Shown in pieces: positions 5,226 to 37,644 of a DNA stretch of 64,000 nt. How positions within the stretch are numbered: the first letter of the stretch is position 1; the number at the start of each line of letters is the position of its first letter. The notes beneath the pieces were generated by a model. It saw nothing but the letters and a program-made list of their open reading frames with translations. It was not told the origin of the DNA and did not search any database. This DNA comes from a virus. Position numbers and translations under genes: made by a program. The DNA lies in the IMG/VR virus record IMGVR_UViG_3300029171_000001. One strand, 5' to 3'.

Positions 5226-5771
5226 TTAATTTTTTGTACTCAACATCAAATCCTTCACATTCTGCACACAAAATCCATGACCTTCTCTTCTGATCAATTC
5301 ATAAATCACCCCTGTAAGCTCTGACGGTTTTGTAAACACTTGCTCTAACCCTGGGCACTTCAACGGTTCTGGAGATAAAAATTCACCATACCCCTTATCT
5401 TCCCACTCTTTCATTGTTGCTGCAACATCATCAACCTGAAACGCCATATGGTGAATTCCGCCTACACCATCTCTTGCTTTTACCCAATCTCCGACGATTG
5501 AATTCTCTTCACCATCTGATATGAAAATTTCTGGAGCCACATGATAGACCTGGTTAATATCGCCAAATGGAAAGTTTATTGCCCAAGGCAAATTCTCGCT
5601 CACCTTTTCAGATGGCACAAGCACAAGACAATTGGCCTCTGTACCATCATCAAATTGTAATTTAAAGCCATCTGGAAGATCTTCAGCAATTTTATACCCA
5701 AGGCAATCAACAAAGAATTGGGCTGTTTTATGACGGTTTTTGACCCTGTAGGCCACGTGGTCTAATCTCAT
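5226..5771 (-). CDS. VOC/glyoxalase superfamily protein
   Basis: LDHVAYRV, GIHHMAFQVDDV, C-terminal YELI. Confidence 0.8.
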   Translation of the reverse strand: MRLDHVAYRVKNRHKTAQFFVDCLGYKIAEDLPDGFKLQFDDGTEANCLVLVPSEKVSENLPWAINFPFGDINQVYHVAPEIFISDGEENSIVGDWVKARDGVGGIHHMAFQVDDVAATMKEWEDKGYGEFLSPEPLKCPGLEQVFTKPSELTGVIYELIRREGHGFCVQNVKDLMLSTKN

Positions 5772-27550: not shown

Positions 27551-27811
27551 TTATTGATAATTTTTGCGATAAATGCAGACATATTTTACATCATTTTTTA
27601 AATGATCAAAAAAATACTTTTCACATTGTTTAAATGTACCAATTTTCACTAATTCATCAGAAAACATCTCATAATATAAACCATATTTCCCATCTTCTCT
27701 TAAACGAATATAGGCATATCCAGAACCATTACTGTCCTTATTTTTTTTAAAACAATAACTAACCTCATTTAAGATTATACTTTCTTCAATTACAATATCT
27801 TTCTTTTTCAT
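27551..27811 (-). CDS. hypothetical protein
   Basis: 86-aa ORF abutting trpS. Confidence 0.65.
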   Translation of the reverse strand: MKKKDIVIEESIILNEVSYCFKKNKDSNGSGYAYIRLREDGKYGLYYEMFSDELVKIGTFKQCEKYFFDHLKNDVKYVCIYRKNYQ

Positions 27812-28551
27812 TAATTTTTATTACCAAACAACTCCACCATTCTACGAGCAATTGCCTCTTTAAGTTGCAAATTTAATGAAAATTCTTGAATATCCAAACC
27901 CAACTCCCTGGCAATCATCTGTATATTTTTCAAACCTTCTTCATTCATGTTTGCTTTTTTTATCTTTCCCATATAATCTTCATCAAAAAGATATAACACA
28001 TGTTTTTCACCATCTGATTTTGACATTTTCTTCGTAGGGTCAATCAACGACATTACCTTATCCACATGTCCAAACTCATATGTATAATCATCTCTACCAC
28101 CAACACGCTTACAAATATCGTTTGCAAGCTCTATATGAGCAACCTGGTCCCTGCCAACAATAATTATGTCTGGATCATTCATCATAATATCAGCTGCCAT
28201 TAAAACTGGGTATAAAAGCAAACCCATGTCGTACTCAACCTTGTCTTTTTTATCTTTATACTGAGGCATCTTTAACAGTGTAGCAATATTTACCTTGCAG
28301 CAAAGTTTGAAAAAAAGTTCTGTATACAAAGGTGTTTGGTGCACAATTTTTTTGCACCCCAAACGAATAAGCTCTTGTTCGGTTTTATCTGAATAACTAT
28401 CGGTTGTCAAAGAATGATAATTGGCAATCAAAAAAGTAACATCATGACCTTGTTCTTGTAACTCAAGACCTTTTTTAAGACAACCTAGATAGTTACCTAT
28501 GTGAAGTTTGTTAGTCGGTTGAATGCCGATTAATATTTTTTTTGTTTTCAT
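27811..28551 (-). CDS. trpS: tryptophanyl-tRNA synthetase, compact (246 aa)
   Basis: GIQPT..LHIGNY, YPVLMAADI, VG.DQ..H.EL, KKMSKS; start re-set to MKTKK because the ORF-track extension lies in a tRNA. Confidence 0.93.
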   Translation of the reverse strand: MKTKKILIGIQPTNKLHIGNYLGCLKKGLELQEQGHDVTFLIANYHSLTTDSYSDKTEQELIRLGCKKIVHQTPLYTELFFKLCCKVNIATLLKMPQYKDKKDKVEYDMGLLLYPVLMAADIMMNDPDIIIVGRDQVAHIELANDICKRVGGRDDYTYEFGHVDKVMSLIDPTKKMSKSDGEKHVLYLFDEDYMGKIKKANMNEEGLKNIQMIARELGLDIQEFSLNLQLKEAIARRMVELFGNKN

Positions 28552-28553
28552 CG

Positions 28554-28638
28554 CACGTCGAAGAGGATTCGAACCCCTGTGAGACCTAAGTCTGCTGGTT
28601 TTGGAGACCAGTGCTATCAACCACTCTGCCATCGACGT
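28554..28638 (-). tRNA. tRNA-Trp(CCA) with long variable arm
   Basis: CTGGT-CTCCAAA-ACCAG, A1:U72, G73, AGAC-TTAG-GTCT arm; ends 2 nt before the trpS ATG. Confidence 0.88.
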
Positions 28639-30153: not shown

Positions 30154-30158
30154 AATTG

Positions 30159-30247
30159 AGGAGAGCATAGGATTCGAACCTAATGCGGGTCTTCCCCGCA
30201 CCCTTTGTTTAGCAAACAAGGACTAGCCCAAGCCAGCATTACTCTCC
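30159..30247 (-). tRNA. tRNA-Ser(GCT)
   Basis: Loop TTGCTAA, TGCGGG/CCCGCA arm, U73. Confidence 0.85.
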
Positions 30248-30327
30248 AATTTTATCTCCGCATTTTTGCGGAGATTACGATGTTTATTCACCGCACAAAA
30301 ATAAAAAACAATACGTCAAAAAACTTT

Positions 30328-30413
30328 TGGCGGAAGATATAGGAATCGAACCCTGCCCTTGCGGACCGCCCCATGCTTCAAACATGGTTGACCACCGATG
30401 GTCGCTACCTTCC
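30328..30413 (-). tRNA. tRNA-Ser(TGA), CCA encoded
   Basis: CCATG-TTTGAAG-CATGG, variable arm, GCCA end. Confidence 0.88.
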
Positions 30414-35028: not shown

Positions 35029-35048
35029 AGCGCTTGCGTGGTTTCGAA
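35029..35048 (-). pseudogene. isolated tRNA 3' fragment
   Basis: TTCGAAA-CCACG-CAAGCGC-T(CA) with no 5' half. Confidence 0.45.
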
Positions 35049-35075
35049 AATTTATTTCTATTTATATTAAACTTT

Positions 35076-35735
35076 ATGAAACCATTATATACATTTATTG
35101 AATTTGAAAAAGCTAAAACTTGTGATATGTTACCTTGTGAGTGTTTACAATGTCATGGTGTTTTTAAAAAACAAAAAAGAGCAATAGTAAAAGCACTAAA
35201 AGGTGTTGACAGGCATTGTGGTAATTTTTGTAGTCCAATTTGCGGAAGAATTCACCAAGGTGGATTAAGTCAATCTGTGGTCTGCAAAAATTGCCAGACG
35301 GAATTTCTTAAAAAACCTTCTGAAATACTTAGAAATAAAAATCATTTTTGTTCTAAATCTTGTGCTGCCACTTATAATAACACACATAAAACTCACGGTA
35401 CCAGACGATCTAAACTTGAACAATATCTAGAAGAACAATTAACACTTCTTTATCCAGATCTATTAATCAACTTTAACAAAAAAGATGTAATTAATTCTGA
35501 ACTTGATATTTATATTCCATCACTCAAACTTGCTTTTGAATTAAATGGTATTTATCACTATAAACCAATTCATGGCGATAACAAATTAGAAAAAATAAGA
35601 ATTAATGATACTTTAAAAAAAGAAGCATGTAAAAAACTCAACATTGAACTAAATGTAATAAATACATCAACTAAAGAGCATGAGACAATTTTTTTAAAAA
35701 TAATTGCCGACATTATAAACTATAATTTAGTTTAA
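35076..35735 (+). CDS. Zn-finger plus PD-(D/E)xK-type putative homing endonuclease
   Basis: CxxC/FCSxxC motifs, ELDIYIPSLKLAFELNGIYHY; antisense to the tRNA array; TATTTATA at 35059. Confidence 0.75.
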   Translation: MKPLYTFIEFEKAKTCDMLPCECLQCHGVFKKQKRAIVKALKGVDRHCGNFCSPICGRIHQGGLSQSVVCKNCQTEFLKKPSEILRNKNHFCSKSCAATYNNTHKTHGTRRSKLEQYLEEQLTLLYPDLLINFNKKDVINSELDIYIPSLKLAFELNGIYHYKPIHGDNKLEKIRINDTLKKEACKKLNIELNVINTSTKEHETIFLKIIADIINYNLV

Positions 35736-35839: not shown

Positions 35840-35887
35840 TGGGAGTGTAGTCATCGAAGACCTTGACCATATTTCAGTCACACTCCC
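35840..35887 (-). ncRNA. mini-tRNA 1 (48 nt)
   Basis: GGGAGTG TGAC-loop-GTCA A GGTC-TTCGAT-GACT A CACTCCC A. Confidence 0.7.
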
Positions 35888-35936
35888 TGGTGGTTAGGAA
35901 AGGATATTATCCTCATACATCACCAAAGACCCAACC
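35888..35936 (-). ncRNA. minihelix-like RNA with CCA
   Basis: GGTTGGG/CCTAACC ACCA with AGGAT/ATCCT hairpin. Confidence 0.5.
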
Positions 35937-35982
35937 TGGTGGAGAGCAGATCACTTAAGACCCTAACTTTACAGCACTCTCC
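35937..35982 (-). ncRNA. mini-tRNA 2 (46 nt, CCA)
   Basis: GGAGAGT GCT-GTAA-AGT TAG GGTC-TTAAGT-GATC T GCTCTCC ACCA. Confidence 0.75.
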
Positions 35983-35986
35983 TTTG

Positions 35987-36112
35987 TGGCTCTTAAAGGA
36001 TTCGAACCTCTGACAAAACAAAAAATGATATCGTTTTTGTTGTGCTAGTCTACCATATTTTCATTTAGTTACTCGTTGCAACATTTCACTAAAATCCAAT
36101 TGACCAAAAGCC
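35987..36112 (-). ncRNA. 126-nt tRNA-like RNA with D-loop insert and extended central stem
   Basis: GGCTTTT/AAGAGCC+A, AGAGG-TTCGAAT-CCTTT, D-stem GTC/GAC. Confidence 0.55.
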
Positions 36113-36117
36113 ATTTG

Positions 36118-36261
36118 TGGACGTAGAAGGAATCGAACCTCCAATCTTCAGCGTTCCGTGTTAACTTGCAGAACTTCGATCATCCCTCACCTTTCATTAT
36201 TGTCTCGCTTTTATTTGCAAATTATTATGCGATATTTTCATTTCCAGTGCGATATACGCCC
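36118..36261 (-). ncRNA. 144-nt tRNA-Ala-like RNA with large inserts
   Basis: GGGCGTA/TACGTCC+A (G3:U70), D-stem TCGC/GCGA, GGAGG-TTCGATT-CCTTC. Confidence 0.55.
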
Positions 36262-36282
36262 ATATTTTAAAGAACATTTTTG

Positions 36283-36354
36283 AGATCCATGTCGGGTTCG
36301 AACCGACGACCTTGGCTTTTAGAGGGCCTTGCTCTGCCGCTGAGCTAATGGATC
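36283..36354 (-). tRNA. amber suppressor tRNA (CTA anticodon)
   Basis: GATCCAT/ATGGATC, U73, GCTC/GAGC D-stem, loop CTCTAAA, 3-bp anticodon stem plus mismatches. Confidence 0.8.
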
Positions 36355-36360
36355 ATTTTG

Positions 36361-36435
36361 AGCAGGAGGATGGAATCGAACCACCGTCCTCTGATATTGC
36401 GTATCAGCGCTTGCAGCCAACTCAGCTACTCCTGC
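36361..36435 (-). tRNA. second tRNA-Cys(GCA)-like with A32/C33/U38
   Basis: GCAGGAG/CTCCTGC, U73, CTGAT-ACGCAAT-ATCAG. Confidence 0.7.
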
Positions 36436-36440
36436 TTTTG

Positions 36441-36511
36441 TGGGGGAAGATGTTAACGAAACATCGACCTTCTCTCTTGCGAAAAACGCTCTTCAACTGA
36501 GCTATTCCCCC
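36441..36511 (-). ncRNA. tRNA-like RNA with CGCAA anticodon region
   Basis: GGGGGAA/TTCCCCC+A, GCTC/GAGC, TTTTC-GCAA-GAGAG, T-loop TTCGTTA. Confidence 0.6.
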
Positions 36512-36557
36512 TGGTGGAGAGCAGATCACTTAAGACCCTAACTTTTCAGCACTCTCC
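36512..36557 (-). ncRNA. mini-tRNA 3 (46 nt, CCA), copy of mini-tRNA 2
   Basis: Differs from 35937-35982 only in the loop (GAAA vs GTAA). Confidence 0.75.
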
Positions 36558-36562
36558 TTGTG

Positions 36563-36606
36563 TGGGGAAGCAGTCATCTAAGACCTTGTTCTTTCGAACC
36601 TTCCCC
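36563..36606 (-). ncRNA. mini-tRNA 4 (44 nt)
   Basis: GGGGAAG GTTC-GAAA-GAAC AA GGTC-TTAGAT-GACT G CTTCCCC A. Confidence 0.75.
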
Positions 36607-36756
36607 AAGTCCTCTTGTTCCCACTTAAGGGACAATGTTTGAGTTTTTGTTTCTTAGCCAAGTCGCAATCCAAGGCCTGTCTTTTTTGGGTCTGCAGAAC
36701 CCAGACTGTTTCCACTCGCTCACTGATTTTTCAATCTGCGCATCAATTGAAAAACT

Positions 36757-36999
36757 TCAAGAGGTTTTTATTTTATAGATGAAGTGATTTGTGTTTGGCA
36801 TATAACCTTTACCACTTCTATCAAAGAACATTTTGTTTTGCTTATTATCTTCTACTACAATTGCTTCATCAGTTAAATCTATTACCACCCACCAATGTTT
36901 CCACTCTACAGTTGGATTTATTTCATCAGTTGCGCAAGATATTGCAAGTAGTTGACTTTTTACTTTATCACCAATTTTAATATTTGTCAAATTAATCAT
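36757..36999 (-). CDS. hypothetical protein
   Basis: 80-aa ORF. Confidence 0.65.
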   Translation of the reverse strand: MINLTNIKIGDKVKSQLLAISCATDEINPTVEWKHWWVVIDLTDEAIVVEDNKQNKMFFDRSGKGYMPNTNHFIYKIKTS

Positions 37000-37262
37000 T
37001 AGTAAATTTGTGCTATTGTTTCATTGTTGTTTTCGTAAATCTCAATTCTTCCCTTGAATTGAATACTGCCCTTTGTTGTTGGATTTTCTGGAGTTTCTTT
37101 TGTTGAGAATCCAATTTGAGAATCAACATGATTAACATAATAGGTTTGACCCTTGTGCTTGATTGTCCACATCGGAATAGAAGGATCCGATAAATGTCCC
37201 TTGTTAAAGTGGAACACAATTCTACTAACTTCTTCAGATTGCATTATGATTTTATTTTCCAT
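36999..37262 (-). CDS. hypothetical protein
   Basis: Start re-set to MENKII. Confidence 0.7.
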   Translation of the reverse strand: MENKIIMQSEEVSRIVFHFNKGHLSDPSIPMWTIKHKGQTYYVNHVDSQIGFSTKETPENPTTKGSIQFKGRIEIYENNNETIAQIY

Positions 37263-37644
37263 CTGCAACCTCCTTTCCATGAAAATTTTGAAAAGCTGAA
37301 GTATACTCTCTAAACGCCAACGGCAAGTTTGAGGTAAGCCTTTTCGCCTCTTCAGATGGCTCCAACGCAATAGCTGTTAAAGCATCGTTAAAGTCTGGCT
37401 CGGTAAACGCAGAACATAAAATGCCCCTTGTTTTAGCTTTAAATAATAATTCTTGTAATGATTTTTCGTTCTCGCAAGAAAGAAGAACGATATGATTGGA
37501 TTTGAAATACCAATCGTTTTGAACAACTTCGTGTTCTTTTTGAAATTGCTTGCCAGCATGGACAAGCTGAGCACCTTGAGCTCCTGGGTGGAGGTCTCTC
37601 CTGGTGATGAGGATCAATTTTGATTTGTCGTTAATCTACAACAT
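37252..37644 (-). CDS. Pth2-like peptidyl-tRNA hydrolase with in-frame TAG at codon 3
   Basis: LITRRDL..GAQGAQ..HA, IVLL, FTEPD, TAIALEP, LT.NLPL; ATG TTG TAG ATT AAC in frame upstream of the TTG at 37617. Confidence 0.75.

Follow-up and report, generated by a model that had tools for sequence, protein, structure and literature searches.

For decades, helices made of a tRNA acceptor stem and T arm have served both as artificial minimal substrates in place of tRNA and as models for primordial tRNA. RNase P, the CCA-adding enzyme, EF-Tu and some aminoacyl-tRNA synthetases accept such acceptor/T-arm minihelices as substrates. Natural counterparts were found in a 64,000-nucleotide (nt) stretch of IMG/VR virus record IMGVR_UViG_3300029171_000001, here called the window, which comes from an uncultured freshwater giant phage. 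Five "mini" genes for RNAs of 43–49 nt, four of type I (A to D) and one of type II, lie within a tRNA operon, and comparison with related phages indicates that they are genuine genes for small, non-decoding tRNA "top-half" RNAs. These natural minihelix genes are under clear structural selection, occur as several subtypes per genome and are linked with both a suppressor tRNA and a PTH2-like gene; the literature searched contained no description of natural minihelix genes or of a link between PTH2 and a suppressor tRNA.

Synthetic minihelices, such as minihelix-Ala and the RNase P model substrate pATSer, have the same 7-bp acceptor on a 5-bp T stem, the discriminator base and CCA; they are laboratory constructs, whereas the minis are natural genes, of which type I adds a conserved side hairpin and those of the window's clade have a 6-nt T loop. 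The 7-bp acceptor continuous with a 5-bp T stem, the T loop, the discriminator and CCA of a canonical tRNA are all found in the minis, but its D arm and its anticodon arm with a 7-nt loop are absent, leaving only the acceptor stem, one small hairpin and the T arm. The tRNA-like domain of transfer-messenger RNA (tmRNA), including tag-less phage versions, also combines an acceptor, a D-loop-like strand, a T arm and A73-CCA with the lack of an anticodon arm, a likeness that is greatest for type II. Unlike tmRNA, the minis have no G3-U70 alanine identity, long helix or tag reading frame and are only 43–49 nt in length; no Rfam match to tmRNA rose above noise, no SmpB-like gene was recognised, and the two small proteins encoded in the operon, ORF87 and ORF80, gave no significant fold match. 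Truncated tRNA-like structures that are cut by end-processing enzymes within polycistronic transcripts are likewise known as plant-mitochondrial t-elements and from mitochondrial tRNA punctuation. However, t-elements flank mRNAs, whereas the minis stand in runs inside a tRNA-like array and carry conserved loops, A73 and encoded CCA; they are found between tRNA-shaped genes rather than at the end of a protein-coding message, and only the leader of the array and mini D follow a protein gene. The minis thus fail a defining feature of the canonical tRNA, of the tmRNA tRNA-like domain and of t-elements. The small stable RNAs C and D of phage T4 are also non-tRNA RNAs processed within a phage tRNA cluster; they are about 120–140 nt long and are not known to be minihelices. 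The armless mitochondrial tRNAs of nematodes (about 42 nt) are similar in length and have a 7-bp acceptor, but they keep the anticodon arm and decode, whereas the minis keep the T arm and have no anticodon.

All five elements that an earlier note, made from the DNA letters alone, had placed at these positions are present, on the minus strand. Type I minis consist, in order, of the 7-bp acceptor, 0–1 nt, a first hairpin (hairpin 1), 0–2 nt, a T-like stem with a 6-nt loop, the 3′ strand of the acceptor, A73, and CCA or CA. Mini D (36606–36563) has the acceptor GGGGAAG/CTTCCCC, the hairpin GTTC-GAAA-GAAC, the T-like loop UUAGAU and A73 followed by CA; mini C (36557–36512) has the acceptor GGAGAGU/GCUCUCC, the hairpin GCU-GAAA-AGU, the loop UUAAGU and A73-CCA, and abuts G+1 of the next gene with zero spacer. 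Mini B (35982–35937, including CCA) also ends in A73-CCA and is a near copy of C; as the earlier note had remarked, the difference, here a single base, lies within the GNRA loop, which is GUAA instead of GAAA. Mini A (35887–35840) has the acceptor GGGAGUG/CACUCCC, a 5-bp hairpin with the loop GAAAUAU, the T-like loop UUCGAU and A73. The type II minihelix (35936–35888, including CCA) is composed of a 7-bp acceptor, the conserved 14-nt strand UCUUURGUGAUGYA, a 17-nt T arm and A73-CCA. Hairpin 1 occupies the position at which class II tRNAs have their variable arm. It had been described as 3–4 bp long, with GNRA loops in three elements, which holds for B, C and D but not for subtype A, where it has 4–5 bp and a 6–7-nt A-rich loop (7 nt in mini A itself). 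The T-like stem has five positions, of which the four inner pairs always form and the outermost is often A-A or A-G, and the acceptor 3′ strand joins it without a spacer. What had been read as "one linker nt" is therefore better seen as this outermost, often mismatched position, abutting the acceptor strand as in tRNA.

ARAGORN and Rfam (at gathering scores and at E≤10) did not recognise the minis and, within the array, called only two Cys-type tRNAs and the suppressor; no Rfam or literature match to a known family with another function, which the earlier note had named as evidence against its own view, turned up. Exact DNA patterns in IMG/VR matched only one other record, the nearest relative G001, a 154-kb fragment estimated to be 59% complete, and IMG/VR queried with the 233-aa gene beside the array or with a single PTH2-like sequence returned no relatives. 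The flanks of G001 are 97% identical to those of the window, but its array is rearranged: the same suppressor tRNA is surrounded there by three minis of type I and one of type II. A metagenome scan gave a third variant of the array (L021/L023). Further relatives were reached with the PTH2-like protein, encoded 650 nt upstream, as query and then through the contigs of its homologues: L025, L026, L027 and L034/L035 encode PTH2-like proteins 55–77% identical to that of the window, and all of their arrays hold minis. Homologues are thus present in six further phage lineages besides the window (G001, L021/L023, L025, L026, L027 and L034/L035). Mini D, which scores 57 bits with covariance model (CM) R2, has orthologues with compensatory changes in L021, L025, L026 and L027; orthologues of mini C were found in L001 and L021, an orthologue of mini B with the loop GCAA in L021, and homologues of mini A in L001 (two), L021, L025, L026 and L034. 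When a CM was built solely on B-, C- and D-type copies from the window, G001 and L021, it recovered the independent D-type copies in L025, L026 and L027 with E values of 1e-9 to 1e-11. In the lineage L028–L030, the sole mini is a chimeric type II copy (L028, 4376–4421), in which the 5′ acceptor strand derives from one variant and the 3′ strand from another, and the two do not pair; the copy is probably a disabled recombinant. A search with CM R2 turned up no copies in contigs G002, G003, G006 and G007 or in 19 more distant PTH2-like loci, and the minis are confined to the clade with PTH2-like proteins at least 55% identical to that of the window.

The fold is retained throughout this clade by compensatory changes. 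Sixteen distinct type I sequences from seven lineages were aligned segment by segment in Python by the author; 242 of the 250 pair cells are standard, double changes are seen in 13 of the 17 pairs, the observed paired count was not reached in any of 2000 column shuffles, and RNAalifold predicts the same fold from this alignment. Among ten CM-aligned type I sequences, 98% of the cells are paired, compared with 37–53% when the partners are slid, and 10 of 15 pairs show double changes, figures that lean towards structure because this alignment was fitted to the model. Both alignments, which were used instead of the default MAFFT alignment since the latter misplaces the 5′ strand, agree with each other and with the folds of the individual sequences. 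Each of the six intact type II copies has an acceptor stem of its own, every one of which pairs, and double changes occur in 7 of 12 pairs. Loops are conserved as well: changes in the GNRA loops of hairpin 1 stay within GNRA (GAAA, GUAA and GCAA), and in subtype A the A-rich loop persists in the window, L001, L026 and L034. These data indicate that selection acts on the folded RNA, with covariation in all three helices across seven lineages.

The T-like loops in the window are UUCGAU, UUAAGU or UUAGAU, whereas the second hairpin of the L026 and L034 minis has canonical 7-nt loops (UUCGGAA and UUCGAAA), and for this reason the second hairpin is taken to be a true T arm; judged against these relatives, the T loop of the window's clade is shortened by one base. 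An assignment of the second hairpin to an anticodon arm was ruled out, as no register yields a 5-bp stem with a 7-nt loop. The covariation and the canonical T loops of relatives back the earlier description of the elements as tRNA top-half mimics that have no D or anticodon arm, cannot decode and are punctuated like the tRNAs around them.

Folding of single sequences gave the described structures for all five elements, with z-scores of −3.4 for A, −3.1 for D, about −1.9 for B and C and −0.9 for type II. The 3′ motif GGTCTT-NNN-TGAYY-N5-YCCA occurs four times in the window and in none of 100 shuffles, and a narrower version with the loop fixed as TTAAGT had 17 chance matches in 185,579 prokaryote genomes, none with a pairing 5′ strand. 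A loose structural descriptor found 9–17 AT-rich matches per shuffled window, so that structure alone is unconvincing and the comparative evidence decides; on that evidence, homologues that keep the fold through compensatory changes confirm that the elements are real beyond chance.

The acceptor end is the most constant part of the minis. In type I, G2-C71 is present in 16/16 sequences and G1-C72 in 15/16, the remaining one having G-U; A73 is found in all type I, type II and capped full-size mimics (described below), and the rest of the stems drift with compensation. Two acceptor stems resemble those of real tRNAs. The acceptor of minis B and C, including a U7-G66 wobble, equals that of the tRNA-Ser(GCU) genes found in these phages (window 30248–30158; L016 of G002) and does not change across three lineages, in contrast to the other helices, which covary, but the discriminator is A in the minis and U or G in those tRNA-Ser genes; the D and anticodon arms are absent from B and C, and their hairpin and T arm share no sequence similarity with the tRNA. 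The 5′ strand of mini D is that of a tRNA-Ala of G002, with pair 3:70 being G-C instead of G-U. Pair 3:70 is G-C or A-U in 16/16 type I sequences and U-A, G-C or C-G in type II, and no mini has G3-U70. Under the general identity rules of tRNAs, acceptor stems are thus copied but the features required for charging are absent, which lends weak support to free, uncharged CCA ends; the minis are probably not charged like the tRNAs that they copy. A 273-aa TrpRS-like gene (27811–28632, minus strand) without an anticodon-binding domain was considered as a dedicated charging enzyme and found to be unsupported: homologues that are 64–78% identical occur in complete megaphage genomes of ~500 kb that have no R2-type minis, and the tRNA-Trp adjoining the TrpRS gene has A1-U72 and G73, unlike the minis. 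The CM also matches, weakly, the variable arm and T arm of a Ser-type tRNA. Two Ser-type tRNA genes on the minus strand were missed by ARAGORN, one at 30325–30410 with the anticodon loop UGA, an odd D region and encoded CCA, and the GCU gene at 30158–30248, whose acceptor stem is that of minis B and C.

The RNA array belongs to a conserved operon. Its first gene (37252–37617, minus strand) is PTH2-like (Pfam PF01981, E 1.8e-6), and two small genes of 87 aa (ORF87) and 80 aa (ORF80), at 36757–37262 on the minus strand, separate it from the array. The order PTH2-like gene, ORF87, ORF80, RNA array is found in the window, L025, L026, L027 and L034/L035, the small genes of the relatives encoding 85–88 aa and then 77–80 aa; in L028–L030, the array is directly behind the PTH2-like gene, without the two small genes. 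An array follows the PTH2-like gene in relatives whose PTH2-like proteins are 55–99% identical, the arrays of this clade include a GCAA-capped, tRNA-shaped mimic without a usable anticodon, and L031 has one capped mimic. The conserved position of the array behind this gene supports the link between the minis and Pth that had been suggested from the sequence. Compared with the solved Pth2 to which it aligned, the PTH2-like protein is divergent, having neither the Lys-rich GKGK loop nor the D-x-G-x-T motif, and its family has invariant motifs of its own, FTEPD and LTA-x-A-x-EP; the protein may have a changed substrate or activity. ORF87 and ORF80 are strongly conserved and give all-beta structure models; neither falls into a Pfam family, the atlas offered no lead, and fold searches gave no match at E≤0.001, only weak hints of OB-like and SH3-like barrels.

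A suppressor tRNA with the anticodon CUA was found within the 3-kb flanks in 18 of 23 IMG/VR PTH2-like loci (L038–L060), several times directly behind the gene, and two of the five loci without it end just after the gene. Of the RNAs that accompany the PTH2-like gene, the amber suppressor is the most widely conserved, so that these two form the conserved core, to which the minis have been added. Jumbo phages are known to carry PTH2 genes, for which a role in ribosome rescue after tRNA damage has been proposed (PMC7824862). Among these loci, L039 contains a match to GOLLD RNA upstream of the PTH2-like gene (1174–1660; at 138.7 bits slightly short of the gathering score, 150), and L041 contains a wcaG RNA (5441–5522).

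It is proposed, tentatively and with rather less than even confidence, that the minis function as non-decoding surrogates of the tRNA acceptor end, that is, as decoys or competitors, although the function is inferred. They would be transcribed together with the PTH2-like operon and the neighbouring tRNA-like genes, and host RNase P would cut at each G+1. At three junctions in the window, ACCA is followed directly by G+1 of the next unit; here, one RNase P cut would also give the upstream unit its mature CCA and so finish both neighbours, and the other minis would be trimmed and then completed by the CCA-adding enzyme. Each product has a standard acceptor/T-arm helix with A73, a small side hairpin in type I at the position of the class II variable arm, and no anticodon. 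As a surrogate tRNA acting through its acceptor end, it might draw off host factors that read this end only, such as defence toxins that modify or cut CCA; its partners would be the PTH2-like protein and the array's other mimics that lack an anticodon. The earlier note had proposed toxSAS, MenT, GNAT and nuclease effectors as candidate targets of such decoys, or else Pth or synthetases as enzymes that might use the minis as substrates. MenT/AbiEii nucleotidyltransferase toxins extend tRNA 3′ ends and require an intact CCA (PMC10435456), and FaRel2 is reported to choose tRNAs by their acceptor stem (10.1101/2024.07.05.602228). If this is correct, the minis would make up a counter-defence that is based on RNA and directed at the acceptor end of tRNAs. 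Several points weigh against it. A decoy must compete with a very large cellular tRNA pool and against catalytic enzymes, and neither a host nor a defence system was found. The invariant G1-C72, G2-C71 and A73 could just serve RNase P and the CCA-adding enzyme, the absence of the canonical Pth2 motifs makes the activity of the PTH2-like protein uncertain, and the family is narrow, being absent from distant PTH2-like loci and from related contigs. There is also no sign of the RNAs being made or matured: of four sequencing runs compared with the stretch, two had no match, one DNA run contained the L021 variant, and the RNA-labelled run, which is probably DNA, gave a 214-nt contig identical to 36503–36714 that has no bearing on transcription.

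The minis might instead cooperate with the PTH2-like protein as non-ribosomal carriers of aminoacyl or peptidyl groups, which seems unlikely. Charged, for example, by a synthetase that reads just the acceptor stem and the variable-arm-like hairpin, they would donate an amino acid to a phage enzyme or take nascent chains from stalled ribosomes, and the PTH2-like hydrolase would recycle them, as in a tag-less analogue of tmRNA. The shared operon and the amber suppressor in the array speak for this, as read-through would increase the need for ribosome rescue, and so do the layout of type II, which equals that of the tmRNA tRNA-like domain (acceptor, single-stranded D-loop-like segment and T arm), the tRNA-Ser acceptor of minis B and C with hairpin 1 in the variable-arm position, and the Cys-type tRNAs of the array, which keep GCA and U73 and vary at position 33. 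There is also a precedent in the phage enzyme Mom, which uses Gly-tRNA outside translation (PMC13219725). However, none of the minis has G3-U70, B and C have A73 instead of the G73 or U73 of the tRNA-Ser genes that they copy, no transferase or SmpB-like gene was recognised nearby, and the PTH2-like protein lacks the canonical Pth2 motifs. Moreover, under the general identity rules, few synthetases could charge an A73 RNA without an anticodon. Carriers would represent a use of tRNA chemistry outside decoding; whether as decoys or as carriers, the minis offer small RNAs that are easy to synthesise and can be used to probe how specific acceptor-end enzymes and toxins are. A more elaborate proposal, to which very little credence is given, joins the minis, the GCAA-capped mimic and the PTH2-like protein into a codon-free phage device for ribosome rescue or peptide release. 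On ribosomes that are stalled or engaged in read-through, a mini, whether acylated or free, would enter the peptidyl-transferase centre, where it would accept the nascent chain or displace it; the PTH2-like hydrolase would then clear the mini, and the process would be coupled to the phage amber suppressor; if true, it would be a natural tag-less, protein-light counterpart of trans-translation.

Two further explanations assign no function to the free RNA or none at all to the genes. The close packing of the minis against their neighbours, with spacers of 0–6 nt, and the position of the first mini after the protein-coding part of the operon would suit mere processing elements, that is, RNase P or RNase Z cut sites or spacers that govern in which order and how efficiently a polycistronic transcript matures, much like mitochondrial tRNA punctuation and plant t-elements. 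But the adjoining genes are already tRNA-shaped and need no extra cut sites, the minis stand in runs of two or three, their subtype-specific hairpin-1 loops (GNRA or A-rich) are kept across lineages, and a mere cut site needs no A73 with encoded CCA, all of which makes this decidedly unlikely. By-products of gene turnover, such as tRNA remnants or mobile tRNA-shaped inserts from homing endonucleases that are kept by drift or selfish spread, are improbable given that all three helices covary at the RNA level in seven lineages. The rearrangement of the array between phages with 97% identical flanks, the duplicates B and C, the chimeric L028 type II copy with its broken stem, and the endonuclease-type genes inserted nearby in several relatives (the 233-aa, GIY-YIG and DUF723 genes) fit such an origin; on the other hand, no mini was found inserted in a tRNA gene of the window, G001, G002 or G003, and L026 has minis without an endonuclease gene in the locus.

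The remainder of the array also consists of RNA units. On the minus strand between 35761 and 36764, there is no protein gene, and tRNA-shaped units are packed head to tail. It begins with a 155-nt leader (36764–36610) that is closed by the 7-bp stem CCUCUUG/CAAGAGG, ends 3 nt before mini D and contains a bulged, T-like hairpin whose UUAAGU loop is identical to that of minis B and C; in L021 and L025, this hairpin is kept with the compensatory change CCC/GGG to CUC/GAG. Mini C is followed by the capped mimic (36511–36441), a full-size tRNA mimic with A73 in which the "anticodon" stem ends in a GCAA tetraloop and which was missed by ARAGORN and Rfam. In L025, L026, L027 and L028, its stem of 5–7 bp covaries, GCAA is invariant and A73 is present; the RNA that takes this slot in L021/L023 instead has a 7-nt loop, interpreted by ARAGORN as the anticodon UUA. 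Next are a Cys-type tRNA with C33 (36435–36360) and the amber suppressor (36354–36282), which was found by both ARAGORN and Rfam, and a second Cys-type tRNA (35833–35761) comes after mini A. The Cys-type tRNAs of the window, L026, L027 and L034 keep GCA and U73 and have C, U or G at position 33 depending on the phage; they may be chargeable yet poor decoders.

Oversized tRNA-like RNAs of 115–170 nt are found repeatedly in this phage group; their acceptor stem and T arm are normal, and they contain a large internal insert. Four are on the minus strand of the window, at 1017–1135 and 2689–2803 and, between the suppressor and mini B, at 36261–36118 and 36112–35987; others were found in L026, L027, L031, L034, L041, L050 and L058, and the insert of the 144-nt RNA is conserved. 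Beside the array, on the plus strand, lies the 233-aa gene of unknown family (35034–35735), which is absent from G001 although that region is 97% identical, and the operons of relatives contain inserted GIY-YIG genes (L025 and L034) or a DUF723 gene (L027); these genes look like mobile endonuclease-type genes.

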